DNA from: Abditibacteriaceae bacterium
GTDB lineage: Bacteria > Armatimonadota > Abditibacteriia > Abditibacteriales > Abditibacteriaceae
Length of the DNA stretch: 24,007 bases
Assembly: GCA_031425655.1 (NCBI GenBank)
Contig: JANPJS010000217.1
Coordinates: 1 to 24,007, forward strand
Reading direction: 5' to 3'
Of the stretch, positions 1 to 19,235 are shown piece by piece (position 1 is the stretch's first letter; every line of letters starts with the position of its first letter). The position numbers and the translations under genes were made by a program. The notes beneath the pieces are model-generated. The model did not search any database. It was not told the origin of the DNA and saw only the letters and a program-made list of their open reading frames with translations.

Positions 1-402
1 CTGCTGGTGAGTGAACCGATCGCCGCCGATCCGAAGAAGGCGGAGCTCAAGCGGTCCTTGGATGCCGCGGTCCGTATTCTGGTGGCCGCGGGATATACGA
101 TCAAACGGATCCCGATGCATGCGCCTTTCGCCGCAGACGACGCCGACAAGCGTATTTGGCGGACCTACGCCAACAGCGTCTTCGTTCGTGGGCCGGCGGG
201 CGATTTTGTCCTCGTGCCGACCTACACCTCGGATAAGAGTCCGAAGGCCGCTCAAGACATCGAAGCTGAAGCACTCAAGACTTATGCCGACGTGTTCAAG
301 GCGAAGTATCCGACCTCGAAGATCATCAAGATCCCCTCGATGATGATCATCGAGGATGGTGGGGCCGTGCACTGTTCGACGATGCCTGTGTCGGCGGAAT
401 GA
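1..402 (+). CDS. Agmatine deiminase / peptidyl-arginine deiminase family protein, 3' part (5'-truncated by the window)
   Basis: Frame is open from base 1 to TGA at 400-402. C-terminal GGAVHCSTM matches the GG-x-x-HC-x-T catalytic Cys motif of pentein deiminases; upstream TYANSVFV and LVPTY segments also fit this family. Confidence 0.7.
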   Translation: MLVSEPIAADPKKAELKRSLDAAVRILVAAGYTIKRIPMHAPFAADDADKRIWRTYANSVFVRGPAGDFVLVPTYTSDKSPKAAQDIEAEALKTYADVFKAKYPTSKIIKIPSMMIIEDGGAVHCSTMPVSAE

Positions 403-432: not shown

Positions 433-867
433 TCAACTACGCAGGCGCTTCACGGCTTCGTTGACGGCGGTTCCGCCCACCACAGCACCGCTCGCCTTGA
501 GGTGCTTCATCGCTACACCCGTGGCTGCACCTTCACTTCCTGCGGCCTTGATCGCGTCCGCGACCGGCGCCAACGCTTTGACGATGTCATCGGCGCTGAG
601 CTGCTTCGGTAGCAACGTCTCGAGCACACGATTTTCTTCTTCGAGCTTCTCGCGCATCTCGGCACGGTCCTGCACGACCGCCAACGTTTCGGTGTTGGAT
701 TTGATCAACTTGCGGATGATCTTCTGTGCGGCTTCGTCATCCACGGTGGCGCCGCGATTTTCGGCGGCTTGAATTTCTCCGAGGGCGACGCGGAGCACGT
801 CGCGTTCGATGACGCGGCCGCCTTTCATCGCTTCGATGACCCGTTTTTTGATGTCTTCCGCCAGCAT
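433..867 (-). CDS. yqeY: GatB/YqeY domain protein (144 aa)
   Basis: MLAEDIKKRVIEAMKGG...LRVALGEIQ...LETLLPKQLSADDI...GVAMK is the typical YqeY pattern. ATG at 867 is preferred over GTG at 888, which overlaps the SDR stop. Confidence 0.85.
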   Translation of the reverse strand: MLAEDIKKRVIEAMKGGRVIERDVLRVALGEIQAAENRGATVDDEAAQKIIRKLIKSNTETLAVVQDRAEMREKLEEENRVLETLLPKQLSADDIVKALAPVADAIKAAGSEGAATGVAMKHLKASGAVVGGTAVNEAVKRLRS

Positions 868-881
868 GATGTTCGGAGACC

Positions 882-2285
882 CTACCACTCGGTGGGCTTA
901 TAATCCTTGTAAAAAAGCCCGAATGCGTGCTCGCCGGTCGAAAGCCCGTCGAAGATCGGCGCGACGATGCGGGCCGCGCCGTCGACGATGTCCAGCGGGG
1001 GCGAGAAGCCTTGCTCCTCGACCTTACGCGCCGCGATGACGGCCGGATCTTCGTCGGTCACCCAGCCGGTGTCGACGCTGTTCATGTGGATTCCGTCCTT
1101 CGCGTATTCACTCGCCGAGGTTCGGGTCATCATGTTGAGCGCGGCCTTGGCCATGTTGGTGTGTGGATGTTTGTCGGTCTTGAAGCGCCGGTAAAATTGG
1201 CCTTCCATCGCCGAGACGTTGACGATAAAGCGGCGCGGATGCGGCGAACGCAGCAAAAGCGGCTTCAATTTCGCGTTGAGCACGAAGGGCGCGACGGCAT
1301 TGACCAGATGCACTTCGAGCATTTCAAGTGTTGAGATTTCATGCAGGCGCCGCCTCCACGAATGATGCGGACGGGCATCGAACTGCTGGCCGTCGGCGTC
1401 CAACTGCCCGTGTGGAAAGTGTGCTTGCAACGCGGCTTCGCCGGGATAAAGCGGATGCCGCTCCAAAAGCGCCGCGCGGTTGGGCGACGCACCATTTGCA
1501 ATGAGCATTTGCGCGCCGTCGGGCAGTGCGAGGGCGTTTTCGGCATCAAGCAAATGCTGATAAAACGCCAACGGGCGCTTGACGGTTTGTGCGGCGTTGT
1601 GAATCACGATGTCGAGATGCGGCTGCGTTTCGAGCAAATGCGCGGCAAACGCTTCGACGGAAGACAAATCGCGTAAATCGAGGCCGAAAATCTGCAAACG
1701 GTCGCGCCACGCTGCAAAGTCGGTTTCCGCGCCAAAACGTCGCGCCGCATCGCGCGCAAAGCGCGTGGTGAGCAACACGCTTGCACCATCGCGCAGCAAG
1801 CGCAACGCGACTTCATAACCGATTTTGATGCGCCCGCCGGTGAGAAGCGCCGTTCGCCCACGCAAATCGGCGCGTTGCGTGCGCTTTTGCCAGTTAAACG
1901 TCGCGCAATCGGGACACAATTGATGATAAAACCAGTGCAGTTCGGCATAAGGCTGCTTGCAGACGTAGCACAACGCGGCGCGACTTAGCGAACGCTGTGA
2001 GTCGGCGAGAGCGGCGCTCTGCGGCGCAGCGGGAAGCGTGAGCGCAGAGCGCGAAGTTTCTGCGCGTTCACGCTGTTGTTGCACCAAAAGCGTCGTCGCA
2101 CGCAGGTCGCGGTCGAAGGCGGCGCGCGTTTCACGGGCGGTGCGGCGCTGACCTTTTTTGCCTTGCGTGTGGATTTTGGCGACCAAAGCCTTCATCCTCT
2201 CATCGTCGTTGATGACGGACGGGTCTTCCGAAATTTGCTGCAACACGCGCAGGCAAACCTCGCGCTCGTGCGGTGAAATTTCCAT
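882..2285 (-). CDS. Atypical SDR-family NAD(P)-dependent oxidoreductase with N-terminal CxxC...CxxC zinc-finger-like motif (467 aa)
   Basis: Rossmann motif ALLTGGRIKIG, LDIVIHNAAQT, IVNVSAMEG, HTNMAKAALNMMTRT, MNSVDTGW; CYVC...CPDC upstream. Start moved to ATG 2285 (MEISPHERE) because the ORF-track extension to 2405 runs through tRNA-like genes. Confidence 0.88.
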   Translation of the reverse strand: MEISPHEREVCLRVLQQISEDPSVINDDERMKALVAKIHTQGKKGQRRTARETRAAFDRDLRATTLLVQQQRERAETSRSALTLPAAPQSAALADSQRSLSRAALCYVCKQPYAELHWFYHQLCPDCATFNWQKRTQRADLRGRTALLTGGRIKIGYEVALRLLRDGASVLLTTRFARDAARRFGAETDFAAWRDRLQIFGLDLRDLSSVEAFAAHLLETQPHLDIVIHNAAQTVKRPLAFYQHLLDAENALALPDGAQMLIANGASPNRAALLERHPLYPGEAALQAHFPHGQLDADGQQFDARPHHSWRRRLHEISTLEMLEVHLVNAVAPFVLNAKLKPLLLRSPHPRRFIVNVSAMEGQFYRRFKTDKHPHTNMAKAALNMMTRTSASEYAKDGIHMNSVDTGWVTDEDPAVIAARKVEEQGFSPPLDIVDGAARIVAPIFDGLSTGEHAFGLFYKDYKPTEW

Positions 2286-2293
2286 AAAAACGG

Positions 2294-2367
2294 CGGAAGC
2301 GGACGGGACTCGAACCCGCATTTTCCACATCTGGAGTGTGGTGTTCTTCCCTTGAACTACCGCTTCC
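2294..2367 (-). tRNA. tRNA-Trp(CCA)-like RNA with 8-bp acceptor stem (array unit 4)
   Basis: Hand fold: GGAAGCGG-TA-GTTC(AAGGGAA)GAAC-A-CCACA(CT CCA GA)TGTGG-AAAAT-GCGGG(TTCGAGT)CCCGT-CCGCTTCC-G, followed by CCG. Confidence 0.85.
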
Positions 2368-2375
2368 AAAATCGG

Positions 2376-2452
2376 AGGAAGCCGGGAGGAGTTGAACCTC
2401 CACACCTCCTGAATGCAATTCAGGCGCTCTTCCCTTTGAGCTTACGGCTTCC
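2376..2452 (-). tRNA. Irregular tRNA-like RNA, anticodon UGC by register, 8-bp acceptor stem (array unit 3)
   Basis: Hand fold: GGAAGCCG-TAA-GCTC(AAAGGGAA)GAGC-G-CCTGA(AT TGC AT)TCAGG-AGGTGT-GGAGG(TTCAACT)CCTCC-CGGCTTCC-T, followed by CCG. No G3:U70 pair. Confidence 0.75.
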
Positions 2453-2460
2453 AGAAAAGG

Positions 2461-2549
2461 TGAAAATGGGCGGGACTTGAACCCGCATTACTCGCGCGAA
2501 GTTCCAGGTCAAGCCGGGCCGAGCGTGCTTCCCTTGCACCACCATTTCC
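2461..2549 (-). ncRNA. tRNA-like RNA with an elongated (about 33 nt) anticodon arm, 8-bp acceptor stem (array unit 2)
   Basis: Hand fold: GGAAATGG-TG-GTGC(AAGGGAA)GCAC-G-CTCG[25 nt]CGAG-TAAT-GCGGG(TTCAAGT)CCCGC-CCATTTTC-A, followed by CCT. Confidence 0.72.
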
Positions 2550-2561
2550 CTATCGCGCCGC

Positions 2562-2635
2562 AGGGAACCGGAAGGAATCGAACCTTCACCTCGCCGAGTT
2601 GCAGTCGGCTGCTCTTCCCTTGAGCTACAGTTCCC
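2562..2635 (-). tRNA. tRNA-Cys(GCA)-like RNA with 8-bp acceptor stem (array unit 1)
   Basis: Hand fold: GGGAACTG-TA-GCTC(AAGGGAA)GAGC-A-GCCGA(CT GCA AC)TCGGC-GAGGT-GAAGG(TTCGATT)CCTTC-CGGTTCCC-T. U discriminator as in tRNA-Cys. Confidence 0.85.
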
Positions 2636-2653
2636 ATAGAGGCACTCCTTTCA

Positions 2654-2682
2654 AATATGGCGCGCCAAAACTCCAACGTCAA
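2654..2682 (-). promoter_or_regulatory. Putative sigma70-type promoter for the tRNA-like array and SDR
   Basis: Minus strand TTGACG (2682-2677), 17-nt spacer, CATATT (2659-2654); 18 nt separate it from the first tRNA-like unit. Confidence 0.6.
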
Positions 2683-2742: not shown

Positions 2743-5460
2743 ATGAACGACTTCGCCCTGCCATCTTCGGAAAATGCGCCGCTGATTCGCTGGTTTTGGC
2801 GCGCCGATGCCGACGCGCAAGGCATTTGGCGCGAGATGGATACGCTGCGAAAAAGCGGCTATGGCGGCCTGATTTTATGGCCGGACGGCGCGCAAGTCGG
2901 CTATTTGGGCGCCGAATGGATGCAAAAGGCGCGCTGGACGGCAGAAGCGTGCGCCGAACTTGATTTATCGCTGTGGCTAACCGACGATTGGACGCAGCCA
3001 TCGGGCAGCGGCGAATTGGCGCGCGGGCAAAACGAAATCGCGGCGCGTGGGCTGCGTTTTGAAACGCTGCGCGTCAGCCGCAGTGAAGCGCGTTCGTGGC
3101 GCGCACCGTCTGCGCGGCCTATCGCGGCGTGGGCCGTCCCGTGCGGCGACGGCTCGCCGCGCTTTGGCGAAGCCGTAAATCTGATGCCCGAATGGGACGC
3201 CAATCCCACGCGCGCCGTCAGCGCGTTCGGCGAAGACGTGCAGATTCTGCTGTTTCACGAAGCGATTCTCGAAGATGTAGATCGCCTGCATCCCGACAGC
3301 GCGCGATTGTTCCTTGAAAGCGCGCACGAAGCCTACCACGCGGCGCTGGGCGACTGGTTCGGCACGACGATTCGTGGCTTCTGGACAGCCGGGCCGGCGC
3401 TGCCGCAACGCACAGGCGATGAATTTCCGTGGTCGCCGGGCTTGCAAGCAGCGTTTCGAGCCGCGCACGGCTACGATTTGCGCGAGCGGCTGCTGTCTTT
3501 AATCGCGCCGACCGGCGACGACGCCGCTAAAGTGCGGCACGATTTCTGGCAAAGCGTGGCGCTGCTACTTGACGAAAGTTGGTGGAAACCGCTGCGCGCA
3601 TGGTGCGAAAATCACGATTTGCAACTCGTGATATGGGCGCAGCCGGACGGCGAAGCCTCGTATCAAGCGCTTGTGCAGGGCCACGCCGACCCGCTTGTAG
3701 CATTACGAGCCGGGCATCGCATCGCCGTCACGGGCGGCGAAAATTTGCTGTGGCCGCGACTTGCGGCCTCTGTGGCCGCGATGGAAAATCAGGCGGCGCC
3801 TTTCGTGGTCTGGCCCGCCTCTTCGCTTTCGACGCCGCAAGACCGCCTGCCCGTCTGGCAAAATTTATGGGCGCAAGGCGTCGGCGGCAGCGTGTCGAAC
3901 AATGGGGAAGCACTTCAGCCTTACGCCGAACACATCGCTTTGTGGAACGCTTCGCTGGCGCGCTGGCAAAGCGTGCTGGGCGCGACGCGGCCCGGCGCTC
4001 GCATCGGCGTTTTGATGGCCACGCGCTCGGCGTGGGCGCATTATCATCCGCAAGGGCACCGTTTCACGCGCTGGATTTGGGAAGATTACGCCTTCACCGC
4101 CGAACTGCTCGACGAATTGCATTACGACTTTTTGCTGATCGCCGAAGACGATTTTTTGGCCGCACGCGAGGAAAACGGGCAGCTTTTCGCGGGCCGTGCG
4201 GGCTTGCCCCTCGATGCCATCGTGATTCCCGGCGTGACGACGCTGCATCAAAATTCGTGGCGTAAATTGGAAGATTTCGTGACGGCGGGAGGCAAAGTTA
4301 TCTGTCTGGGACTTCTGCCGCGCTGGAGCCAAATCGGGCGCGATACCGAGTTAGAGAACCACATTTCGCAGACGACGCTGCTCACCGTTTCCGATCTTTA
4401 CGCGCAAGGCCAAACCGATCTTGACGGCGAAGAATCCTCGACCGGTTTCCCGATTACGCGCCAAAACGAGCGCGAAGGCCGCATGGCCTGCTATCAGCCG
4501 CAACTCAACTTCGACCGCGCCGATGCCCTTCTGCGCGTGCGCCAAATGATGAAAGACTGCCTGCCCGCCGGCTGCGAAACGCAAACGCCCGGCTTGCTTT
4601 TCGCGCGCCGCGCGGCGGCGGACGGCGACTTGTTTTTGCTGGTCAACGGCGGCGCGGCGCAAATCGCGCACGCGCGTTTGCGTCCGGCCAACGCCGACAG
4701 TGGCGCACTTTTTCAACTTGATGCGTGGACGGGCGAAACGCGCGCCCTGCCCGTTTGGATGGAATTCGGCGCCGACGAAGGCGGTGGTTTCAGCATCGAA
4801 TTGACTCTCGCGGCGGGCGAAATTCGCCTGCTGCAATGGCGACGCGGCGCCGACGGCCCGCGTGTGCAGCGCGCCAACTTCGTCCTCGAAAGCTACGACG
4901 GCCAGACCGCGCGCGGCTACGCGATGCAAAACGGCGCCGCGCGCGTGCAAGTGCGCCAATCGGAGCGCATTCGCACTTTTTCGACTGAGGTTTTGCGCGT
5001 CCCGACGGGGCTGTTTTTACCGGACGAATGGCTGGCGCGGCCTTTAGGTGAATTCGCGCCGCCGGAAAATGAAATCGAAGAATCCTTCGACGAAATACTC
5101 GAACCGGGCACATTATTGCTTGCCGCCGGTTCGTGGCGCGAGCAAGGCTTGGATACTTACGCCGGTGCCGTGGACTATGCGCAAACCTTTGCGCTGCCGC
5201 AATCGTGGAGCGGCTGCCGCGTGTGGCTGGAATTATCGCAACTGCGCGAATCCGTCGAAGTGTGGCTCAATGAAACGGGGTGCGGCGTGCGTCTCGCGCC
5301 GCCGTGGCGCTTTGAGGTCACACAAGCCTTGCGTCCCGGCGCCAACGCGCTGCGCCTTCGCCTTTGGAGCGGCACTTCGCCCAATTCGGACGCGGGCTTG
5401 CTCGGCCCGGCGCGCTTGGTCGCGTATCCGATTGTCGAAATCAAAACGGAGAAACCATGA
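2743..5460 (+). CDS. GH106 (alpha-L-rhamnosidase)-like protein with C-terminal sugar-binding beta-sandwich; catalytic motifs look degenerate
   Basis: N-terminal PLIRWFW...GYGG...YLGAEW...LWLTDDWTQPSG; FPWSPGL...GYDL...KVRHDFW; class I GATase-like middle segment (LHYDF...IVIPG); C-terminal GSW...YAGAVDY...VEVWLN...PPWRFEVT...G.N.L...GLLGP. Confidence 0.7.
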   Translation: MNDFALPSSENAPLIRWFWRADADAQGIWREMDTLRKSGYGGLILWPDGAQVGYLGAEWMQKARWTAEACAELDLSLWLTDDWTQPSGSGELARGQNEIAARGLRFETLRVSRSEARSWRAPSARPIAAWAVPCGDGSPRFGEAVNLMPEWDANPTRAVSAFGEDVQILLFHEAILEDVDRLHPDSARLFLESAHEAYHAALGDWFGTTIRGFWTAGPALPQRTGDEFPWSPGLQAAFRAAHGYDLRERLLSLIAPTGDDAAKVRHDFWQSVALLLDESWWKPLRAWCENHDLQLVIWAQPDGEASYQALVQGHADPLVALRAGHRIAVTGGENLLWPRLAASVAAMENQAAPFVVWPASSLSTPQDRLPVWQNLWAQGVGGSVSNNGEALQPYAEHIALWNASLARWQSVLGATRPGARIGVLMATRSAWAHYHPQGHRFTRWIWEDYAFTAELLDELHYDFLLIAEDDFLAAREENGQLFAGRAGLPLDAIVIPGVTTLHQNSWRKLEDFVTAGGKVICLGLLPRWSQIGRDTELENHISQTTLLTVSDLYAQGQTDLDGEESSTGFPITRQNEREGRMACYQPQLNFDRADALLRVRQMMKDCLPAGCETQTPGLLFARRAAADGDLFLLVNGGAAQIAHARLRPANADSGALFQLDAWTGETRALPVWMEFGADEGGGFSIELTLAAGEIRLLQWRRGADGPRVQRANFVLESYDGQTARGYAMQNGAARVQVRQSERIRTFSTEVLRVPTGLFLPDEWLARPLGEFAPPENEIEESFDEILEPGTLLLAAGSWREQGLDTYAGAVDYAQTFALPQSWSGCRVWLELSQLRESVEVWLNETGCGVRLAPPWRFEVTQALRPGANALRLRLWSGTSPNSDAGLLGPARLVAYPIVEIKTEKP

Positions 5461-19162: not shown

Positions 19163-19235
19163 GGGGCTATAGCTCAGATGGGAGAGCGCCTCGTTCGCAA
19201 TGAGGAGGTCAAGGGTTCGATTCCCTTTAGCTCCA
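19163..19235 (+). tRNA. tRNA-Ala(CGC), canonical 7/5 cloverleaf, CCA not encoded
   Basis: GGGGCTA-TA-GCTC(AGATGGGA)GAGC-G-CCTCG(TT CGC AA)TGAGG-AGGTC-AAGGG(TTCGATT)CCCTT-TAGCTCC-A; G3:U70 present. Confidence 0.97.

Follow-up and report, generated by a model that had tools for sequence, protein, structure and literature searches.

Why should four tRNA-shaped genes stand in tandem directly in front of a gene for a short-chain dehydrogenase/reductase (SDR) carrying a zinc ribbon, and what could such RNAs do there? The question is raised by a 24,007-nt contig of an Abditibacteriaceae bacterium of the phylum Armatimonadota (assembly GCA_031425655.1, contig JANPJS010000217.1; this whole stretch is hereafter referred to as the window), on whose minus strand a first reading of the letters, hereafter the original prediction, had noticed four cloverleaves behind a promoter and proposed a family of tRNA mimics expressed together with the SDR. 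Judged from sequence comparison, the four units belong to a lineage-specific family of non-canonical tRNA genes at the front of what is probably a conserved accessory operon. The hallmarks of this family are a 13-bp acceptor/T branch (8 + 5 bp, in some members 9 + 5 bp), a 7-nt purine D loop and a mostly 4–5-nt variable loop. The alignments and gene maps described below establish that the units form a family with conserved stems, that they adjoin the SDR gene on the same strand, and that they co-occur with two proteins, the SDR and a leucine-rich repeat (LRR) protein. Throughout, G000 denotes the genome of the window, contig labels such as C79 refer to G000, and other G and L numbers denote the genomes and loci of relatives.

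All four of the tRNA-like genes predicted on the minus strand between 2635 and 2292 were recovered by ARAGORN (4/4), and three of them by the Rfam tRNA model (3/4; Table 1). Units 1, 3 and 4 passed the gathering threshold of the canonical tRNA model (RF00005, threshold 29), which unit 2 did not; the model of the selenocysteine tRNA (tRNA-Sec; RF01852) matched unit 2 only, weakly and below threshold (18.2 bits; gathering score, 47). In unit 2 an irregular hairpin of ~24 nt replaces the anticodon loop, while the acceptor, D and T arms are as in the other units and the tail is ACC. Sequence and single-strand folds revealed an 8-bp acceptor helix in each unit (GGGAACUG/CGGUUCCC, GGAAAUGG/CCAUUUUC, GGAAGCCG/CGGCUUCC and GGAAGCGG/CCGCUUCC for units 1–4, respectively); in unit 1 the helix is followed by U, and its minimum-energy fold is a cloverleaf with eight acceptor pairs. 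The T stems comprise 5 bp throughout, the 4-bp D stems differ between units 1–4 yet stay paired (GCUC/GAGC, GUGC/GCAC, GCUC/GAGC and GUUC/GAAC), the D loops consist of purines only (AAGGGAA in three units, AAAGGGAA in unit 3), and the variable loops of all four units end in U. The acceptor and T-stem lengths, the purine D loop and the terminal U on which the original prediction had relied are all visible in the sequence and the folds. Pattern scans likewise bore out the promoter-like site ahead of the array and the lack of a terminator-like site before the SDR start codon: TTGACG-17-CATATT was the sole promoter match between positions 300 and 3000 (0.7 expected from shuffles), with 18 nt between the end of its −10 box and unit 1, and no terminator-like site was found on the minus strand from 2635 to 2285. 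Only 9 nt separate the acceptor helix of unit 4 from the SDR start codon.

Table 1. Annotated features of the window (R1, covariance model of the unit family)
Feature	Position	Strand	Basis
Promoter candidate, sigma-70-like, TTGACG-17-CATATT	2654..2682	-	Pattern match at 9/12 positions
Unit 1, tRNA-like, anticodon GCA	2562..2635	-	ARAGORN; Rfam tRNA 63.4 bits; R1 77.5 bits
Unit 2, 91 nt, tRNA-like without normal anticodon loop	2459..2549	-	ARAGORN; R1 65.1 bits
Unit 3, tRNA-like, anticodon UGC, tail UCC	2374..2452	-	ARAGORN; Rfam tRNA 53.4 bits; R1 69.6 bits
Unit 4, tRNA-like, anticodon CCA, tail GCC	2292..2367	-	ARAGORN; Rfam tRNA 64.2 bits; R1 77.5 bits
SDR gene, 467 aa	882..2285	-	Translation; Pfam adh_short 1.4e-16, adh_short_C2
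Zinc-ribbon segment of SDR (C106, C109, C124, C127)	1905..1970	-	CxxC...CxxC
Divergent extra YqeY-family gene, directly after SDR	433..867	-	Pfam YqeY 3.6e-13
905-aa gene, divergent	2743-5460	+	Weak glycosyl-hydrolase-2 sugar-binding-domain matches below Pfam cut-offs
5'-open open reading frame	1-402	+	
Ordinary tRNA-Ala(CGC)	19163-19235		ARAGORN

The acceptor helix can be read in two frames. In the Rfam alignment, units 1, 3 and 4 read as 7/5 with C73 and the first G falls outside the model, and an 8/5 reading of the units means that G-1 pairs with C73, a pair of the tRNA-His type that is present in all four window units. As a control, we measured the longest possible end helix for 65 tRNA genes of G000 (5.98 Mb, 327 contigs, 67 tRNA genes by ARAGORN) and obtained 7 bp in 31 and 8 bp in 24 of them, three of the latter being window units. 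An eighth pair alone is therefore common; in the ordinary tRNAs of G000 it mostly joins U-1 to A73 or G73, and it is G:C in tRNA-His and tRNA-Sec. What sets the units apart is, on the alignment evidence, a G:C closing pair kept by compensatory change across the family. A reading of the units as 7/5 tRNAs with G-1:C73, of the type recognized by histidyl-tRNA synthetase (HisRS), was considered possible but not adopted, given that some members have 9-bp helices and that an A or AC is conserved behind the helix. The units are also extra to the housekeeping set, because G000 has ordinary tRNA-Cys(GCA) on C262, tRNA-Trp(CCA) on C215 and tRNA-Ala(UGC) on C258 (and tRNA-Sec on C40). The original prediction had allowed that the units might turn out to be the only Cys and Trp tRNAs of the genome, which the ordinary copies on other contigs show they are not.

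Searching 60 related genomes with the array by BLAST returned similar arrays, and 29 units from nine loci were aligned with MAFFT and used to build the covariance model R1. In this alignment (mean column identity, 62%), 95.3% of the stem cells were paired, a level reached by none of 500 shuffles, and sliding the 3' partners by 1–3 columns as a control left 41–56% paired; the outermost pair was present in 29 of 29 units (GC 20, AU 5, GU 4). A search with R1 then yielded 62 units in 18 loci. In the alignment of these 62 units, which was fitted to R1 and hence leans towards its structure, 96.6% of the stem cells pair (0/500 shuffles), in 20 of 22 pairs both partners have changed, and 58 units form the extra outer pair with standard bases (GC 47, GU 6, AU 5); the five T-stem pairs are 99.0% paired. 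As a classifier R1 is poor: it matched ordinary tRNAs in 61/61 genomes, and only scores of at least 73 bits were confined to SDR loci. The extent of pairing and of changes on both sides argues, as originally proposed, for a paralogous family kept in shape by selection.

Some family members combine a 9-bp acceptor helix with a 5-bp T stem, giving a 14-bp branch. The helix is followed by A in 24 of the 62 units and by AC in 14, and ACC also occurs; the D loop reads AANGGAA in 40, and the variable loop measures 4 nt in 35, 5 nt in 25 and 6 nt in 2. An anticodon loop of 7 nt is found in 55 units. The seven others include four long ones (91, 104, 104 and 114 nt, window unit 2 among them) that carry an insert at this place and have their acceptor, D and T arms intact despite it. 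One body type is combined with several different anticodons, of which we counted 18 kinds among the 62 units (UGC 7, CCA 6, CUC 6, GCU 6, CAU 5, GUC 4, GCA 4, GGC 3 and UCA 3, for example; GUG 0). Canonical tRNAs obey identity rules, such as G3:U70 for alanine and the long variable arm of leucine and serine tRNAs. In the UGC, CAA and GCU units, the identity elements do not match the anticodon: the UGC units inspected have no G3:U70, and the CAA and GCU units, with Leu and Ser anticodons, have no long variable arm. Unit 3 of the window is one such case, lacking G3:U70 and having an anticodon arm that differs by 1 base from that of the genome's ordinary tRNA-Ala(UGC). We also scanned viral contigs by pattern: among the at least 120 matches listed, 47 retained a complete T stem, and no listed match showed an 8-bp GGAA...UUCC helix with A behind it or lay beside the SDR motif.

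We further asked whether units accompany the SDR elsewhere. Among 401 sampled genomes of the phylum, 55 encoded the SDR, and the upstream DNA of 59 SDR loci was examined; 18 of these 59 carried 1–7 units directly upstream on the same strand. The arrangement spans five families and differing flanks. Scanning upstream of SDR homologues, a check proposed with the original prediction, thus revealed arrays in other genomes. The narrower set of 61 related genomes gave a consistent picture from both sides. The SDR occurred in nine of them, mostly adjoining BLAST matches to the array, and a search on the RNA side with a D-arm/T-loop signature found 24 places in 11 genomes, 19 of which were at SDR loci and covered all seven SDR-bearing genomes of the window's family. 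Base-by-base reading of seven loci put the last helix 7–26 nt ahead of the SDR start codon. For 22 array starts in relatives, the highest upstream promoter score was 7.3 on average, compared with 5.8 for random 120-nt stretches of the same loci. In five arrays of G012, G023, G022 and G054 (L109, L107, L110 and L108), a TAAAAT or TACAAT box ends 6–8 nt before the first unit, and transcription of those five arrays may start at the 5' end of the first tRNA itself.

Outside the phylum, at least 481 stretches with SDR relatives were found, the best 80 of which came from Myxococcota, Planctomycetota, Omnitrophota and Acidobacteriota. None of these best 80 loci had a unit beside the SDR, the nearby tRNAs being ordinary, at least 0.8 kb away and limited to three loci, and Pfam revealed no recurring partner or LRR protein among 64 same-strand SDR neighbours in other phyla. 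A quick maximum-likelihood tree of 64 SDRs grouped the array-free genes into two clans with support of 100 each, one comprising other phyla and six copies of the phylum, the other 31 copies of the phylum. All 15 array-linked genes lay on the backbone between these clans on long branches, the window copy being nearest the first clan. The tree fits a single origin of the array linkage, with long branches that leave the exact placement uncertain.

The cassette has a third part. In relatives, the SDR is followed by a gene of 380–420 aa with Pfam LRR_6 repeats (E values of 1.6e-25 to 4.7e-09 in four partners), and among PDB sequences an LRR partner matches ribonuclease inhibitor chains at E 2e-27. 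This LRR family occurs in 17 of the 401 genomes, once in each, and in 17/17 it lies directly after an array-type SDR; units were found upstream in all 15 LRR loci whose upstream DNA is on the same contig. The two remaining cases are at contig ends, namely the G335 locus, which is split over two contigs, and C79 of G000, where a second, partial SDR followed by an LRR gene starts at the contig edge. Two array-linked SDRs have no LRR gene: that of G054:C1, where a SUKH-family gene comes next, and the window copy, which is followed by the divergent YqeY gene. Besides this copy (49 bits), G000 encodes a housekeeping-type YqeY on C148 (153 bits), and the 18 other genomes with a YqeY match (27 searched) have one copy each; in GatB, the YqeY domain binds tRNA. 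On present gene maps, the conserved cassette is one of three parts, i.e., irregular tRNAs, a zinc-ribbon SDR and usually a ribonuclease-inhibitor-like LRR protein. In the window this segment is accessory, because the same-genus genomes G002 and G003 have no array at the matching site and no SDR anywhere in either genome: both keep the neighbouring glycosidase-like gene, and the ~1.5 kb beside it holds different open reading frames and no tRNA gene. A tblastn search of plasmids with an LRR partner gave no match. An SDR-LRR pair was also seen in an IMG/VR record classed as a provirus (L464:1-2460; SDR 57% identical to array-linked SDRs). The pair begins at the end of the record, which starts at the SDR start codon itself, and its 41.8 kb contain no tRNA, nor did R1 find anything there.

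The SDR of the window combines a basic helical N-terminal region, the CxxC...CxxC ribbon and a classical SDR fold with an insertion, and bears the motifs TGGRIKIG and HTNMAKAA. It scores 61 and 64 bits against Pfam PF00106 and PF13561 (cut-offs, 26.6 and 27), and its N-terminal 140 residues have no Pfam match. Its AlphaFold2 model (mean pLDDT, 84.9) retrieved generic SDRs only in Foldseek, with TM-scores of 0.7–0.8 to classical SDRs, and as to function a PDB sequence search, NCBIfam and the ESM Atlas led to generic SDRs or clusters only. Across an alignment of 41 members (56% mean column identity) and in 14 array-linked SDRs, the four zinc-ribbon cysteines as well as H117 and Y120 are invariant. 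Where a canonical SDR has its catalytic Tyr, four residues before the conserved Lys, this family has an invariant Thr376 before Lys380. A second motif, Y365-x3-K369, is present in the window copy and in other phyla, and most copies of the window's phylum are without it, array or not: Tyr365 is kept in 12/12 sampled copies of other phyla and in the window copy, and is replaced in 14/15 array-linked copies and in 23/23 array-free copies of the phylum that could be read by pattern (14 more did not match it). The absence of Tyr365 was rejected as a hallmark of array-linked SDRs, since array-free copies of the phylum have lost it too. The atypical active-site motif is, by these alignments, a trait of the whole SDR family and not of the array-linked copies.

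How might such a cassette work? We tentatively rank first the possibility that the tRNA-shaped RNAs are partners of the SDR and LRR proteins and take no part in routine decoding, because the conserved traits lie in the top half of the molecule, units without an anticodon loop are kept, and the tie to the two proteins is strict. A single transcript would start from the promoter ahead of the array. RNase P leaves an 8-bp helix on tRNA-His and tRNA-Sec, and by analogy its cut would preserve the 8-bp helix of the units; a 3' nuclease would then release each RNA and leave the SDR message with a very short leader. The freed RNAs would serve the SDR and LRR proteins as dedicated ligand, substrate or carrier, recognition proceeding via the common top half, i.e., the GGAA...UUCC helix, the AANGGAA D loop and the T arm. 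A more specific version, which we regard as distinctly unlikely, would make the RNAs carriers or substrates for zinc-ribbon SDR chemistry on the 3' end or on an attached amino acid, with the 13-bp branch keeping them off the ordinary translation machinery and the LRR protein holding or guarding the RNA. Its nearest comparisons are glutamyl-tRNA reductase and the tRNA-bound steps of selenocysteine synthesis.

Several observations weigh against a partner role. Neither the SDR model nor its fold matches contain a pointer to RNA binding, and in Myxococcota, Planctomycetota and others the SDR family does without arrays and is well conserved. Within the phylum, the other 41 of the 59 SDR loci had no unit by ARAGORN or R1 (2 of the 41 had less than 500 nt upstream), and the window's own locus is without the LRR gene. 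Units also occur away from the SDR, in a second locus of G197, in G054:C8 and among other genes in G012 and G023. Moreover, the anticodon loops have a functional appearance, U33 being present in 47 of the 55 loops of 7 nt and a purine in position 37 in 52, and several anticodon arms are near-identical to housekeeping ones, e.g., that of tRNA-Ala(UGC), which fits decoding or mimicry equally well. Of the original interpretation, a structure-selected paralogous family that is extra to the housekeeping set and recurrently linked to the SDR can be upheld, and the functional roles stay proposals.

Such anticodon arms would also fit an accessory set of decoding tRNAs; codon supply, missense insertion or stop suppression under a promoter common with the SDR-LRR genes, much as in the tRNA-tufB operon of E. 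coli, is the first alternative to weigh. The Rfam tRNA scores of units 1, 3 and 4 (53–64 bits) and the UCA anticodon in three units of relatives agree with it, and an 8/5 acceptor is no bar in itself, as bacterial tRNA-Sec, described as an 8/5 tRNA in the part of PMC5389517 that treats it, functions on the ribosome. Against it, the ordinary tRNA set of G000 is already complete, the 14-bp branch of some members and the mismatched identity elements of the UGC, Leu- and Ser-anticodon units are at odds with canonical tRNAs, and 7 of the 62 units have no 7-nt anticodon loop with which to decode. SDR matches adjoining the UCA units contain no in-frame stop in need of suppression, and decoding would leave unexplained why the units are tied so strictly to a single pair of genes. 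We consider such a decoding role unlikely.

The position of the arrays suggests another account, which we also hold to be improbable, in which the units would serve in cis as modules for RNase P/Z cleavage and stability, defining the 5' end, half-life or level of the SDR-LRR message, and the freed RNAs would have no job. tRNAs punctuate mitochondrial transcripts in this way. The last unit lies 7–60 nt before the start codon on the same strand in most loci, the window has no terminator-like site between array and SDR, and units of G012 and G023 also precede other genes within the same locus. Yet a single unit would suffice for cleavage, and there are up to seven per array; nor would cleavage signals need the D arms, anticodon stems, U33 and purine 37 that are kept here with compensatory changes. 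A short leader without a Shine-Dalgarno motif adds nothing to this account, being unremarkable in G000, where the motif accompanies 34% of long open reading frames compared with 20% after shuffling. We had also considered the absent motif as a sign of a leaderless SDR message, and rejected it as uninformative for the same weak usage.

Could the cassette instead belong to a conflict system, the units being decoys for anticodon nucleases or antitoxin-like RNAs that restrain one of the cassette's proteins, and the LRR protein a second shield? Anticodon arms that mimic host tRNAs on a distinct top half would suit decoys, and the resemblance of the LRR protein to ribonuclease inhibitor would suit a shield; the cassette's patchiness (17/401 genomes, five families), its variable flanks with two same-genus genomes lacking it at the matching site, the long branches of the array-linked SDRs, and the SDR-LRR pair at the edge of a provirus-classed record are in keeping with this. 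Some loci adjoin a SUKH-family protein, a Fic protein or an R2K ATP-grasp protein. No conserved nuclease or obvious toxin belongs to the cassette, however, PADLOC families gave no match to the SDR, LRR or YqeY proteins, the SDR outside the cassette resembles a housekeeping enzyme, and the units are diverged paralogs, unlike the identical repeats of type III systems. A conflict role is, in our estimate, distinctly unlikely. Finally, it is highly improbable that the units are decaying tRNA duplicates left beside the SDR by inherited gene order alone: a few have mismatched stems or are fragmentary (one match spans 59 nt at 23.6 bits), and a MurA neighbour common to G012 and G023 (by Pfam) and probably to G022 (by sequence alone) points to some vertical inheritance of the locus, but the stem pairing and two-sided changes across the 62 units, the persistence of the arrangement in five families with differing flanks, and an association that follows the SDR tree as well as the occurrence of the LRR gene speak against decay.

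Further odd tRNA loci were observed in G000 and elsewhere. In G000, outside the window, they lie at C61:85-845, C317:19648-20146, C249:81-363 and C70:1011-1089, and comprise a 4.2-kb contig with seven tRNA genes (some of them Leu-anticodon genes of 74 nt that have no long variable arm), an array of five genes and a tRNA-like gene whose anticodon is UUA (ochre). In G023 (L107:3250-4194 and L107:4502-5464) and G012 (L109:5772-6842), proteins of 315–357 aa that are 44–52% identical are encoded between groups of irregular tRNAs on the same strand; they have no Pfam family and no usable Atlas match. Three paralogs of G054 stand beside irregular units on the opposite strand (L108:5457-6332 and L108:6743-7696 in G054:C1, L114:3149-3949 in G054:C8), are 27–35% identical, and include one with a Pfam LRV repeat. 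The second locus of G197 holds two units (L467:3644-3718 and L467:5358-5432; 79.6 and 82.7 bits) with 9-bp helices and ACC or ACG tails, 1.3 Mb from the SDR cassette, adjoining an R2K-type ATP-grasp gene and a DUF2201/AAA pair. A single tRNA-like gene recurs in metagenome loci L131, L146, L149, L159, L164, L167, L178, L181, L209 and L221, with the D arm GUAGCCCAAGGGAAGAGGC and the anticodon region CCCCCUAAAAGGG, which ARAGORN assigns to Phe(AAA), Leu(UAA) or unknown. At L024/L025 (G041:C60:9503-10507), a two-piece SDR-like gene, one piece of which has an in-frame TGA, adjoins an unusual tRNA-like gene of 89 nt, assigned to Glu(UUC) by ARAGORN.

Should the RNAs prove to work with the SDR and LRR proteins, the tRNA shape would have a novel task beyond routine translation, and both a widespread zinc-ribbon SDR family and the ribonuclease-inhibitor-like proteins of bacteria would for the first time become accessible to functional study. 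Should the units decode, they would be natural 8/5 tRNAs of interest to genetic-code engineering. In either case the cassette is small (~3 kb), which makes it directly testable in a model host.

Full-text searches of literature outside subscription journals turned up no account of tRNA arrays linked to an SDR or LRR protein, and several known systems resemble the cassette in part. The tRNA-tufB operon of E. coli places several tRNA genes and a protein gene under one promoter; its tRNAs are housekeeping tRNAs and its protein a translation factor, whereas the cassette has irregular extras that belong with a single pair of accessory genes. Type III toxin-antitoxin loci such as ToxIN have a promoter, tandem structured RNAs and a protein gene, and share with the cassette this layout of a small RNA array as well as a patchy accessory distribution. 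Their ToxI repeats are near-identical 36-nt sequences cut by the toxin, in contrast to the diverged units, and the protein downstream of the units is an SDR and not an endoribonuclease. In human mitochondrial RNase P, the short-chain dehydrogenase SDR5C1/MRPP2 is a tRNA-binding platform; it has the SDR fold in common with the window SDR, and the partner proteins differ. Like tRNA-His, that of G000 included, the units can pair their first G with the C that is C73 in a 7/5 frame, the pair being GC in most of the family. They differ from tRNA-His in having no GUG anticodon (0/62), in a helix often followed by A, AC or ACC and not by CCA, and in the A:U pair that 9-bp members form one step inward.

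Allo-tRNAs and polycistrons of irregular tRNAs, as presented by Mukai et al. 2017 in the portions of their report devoted to them (PMC5389517), have a 12-bp branch (8/4 or 9/3) and long variable arms, and the G-1 tRNAs treated there are charged by HisRS and unused in translation. Similarly to our units, allo-tRNAs in those portions have non-canonical acceptor stems, come from uncultured soil and sediment bacteria, combine many anticodons with one body, and occur in arrays and accessory loci, with members probably outside translation (PMC5389517). The units differ from the allo-tRNAs presented there in their 8/5 branch of 13 bp (or 14 bp) and short variable loops, and their prevailing AANGGAA D loop is not the tRNA-Sec-like D arm that marks allo-tRNAs. 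Four motifs of the unit family were absent from the supplementary sequence tables of PMC5389517, and no link to a dehydrogenase appears in its main text, where the word occurs twice and concerns a formate dehydrogenase assay, or in its supplement, where the word does not occur.

Together with the allo-tRNAs, tRNA-Sec is the nearest known RNA to the units. The section of PMC5389517 concerned with it describes tRNA-Sec as 8/5, and, as in the units, its acceptor of 8 bp and T stem of 5 bp add up to a 13-bp branch. In G000, tRNA-Sec begins GGAGGCGC and ends GCGCUUCC-G-CCA, and thereby resembles unit 4 (GGAAGCGG ... CCGCUUCC-G-CC). The D arm of tRNA-Sec measures 6 bp and 4 nt, whereas that of the units has a 4-bp stem and a 7-nt loop; unlike tRNA-Sec, the units also have no long variable arm, and they carry 18 anticodons, UCA in 3 of 62 (GCA, none, UGC and CCA in the window). 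To our knowledge, a 13-bp acceptor/T branch is regarded as exceptional outside tRNA-Sec, and here at least 62 genes with 18 anticodons carry it, bound to one protein-gene pair across five bacterial families.

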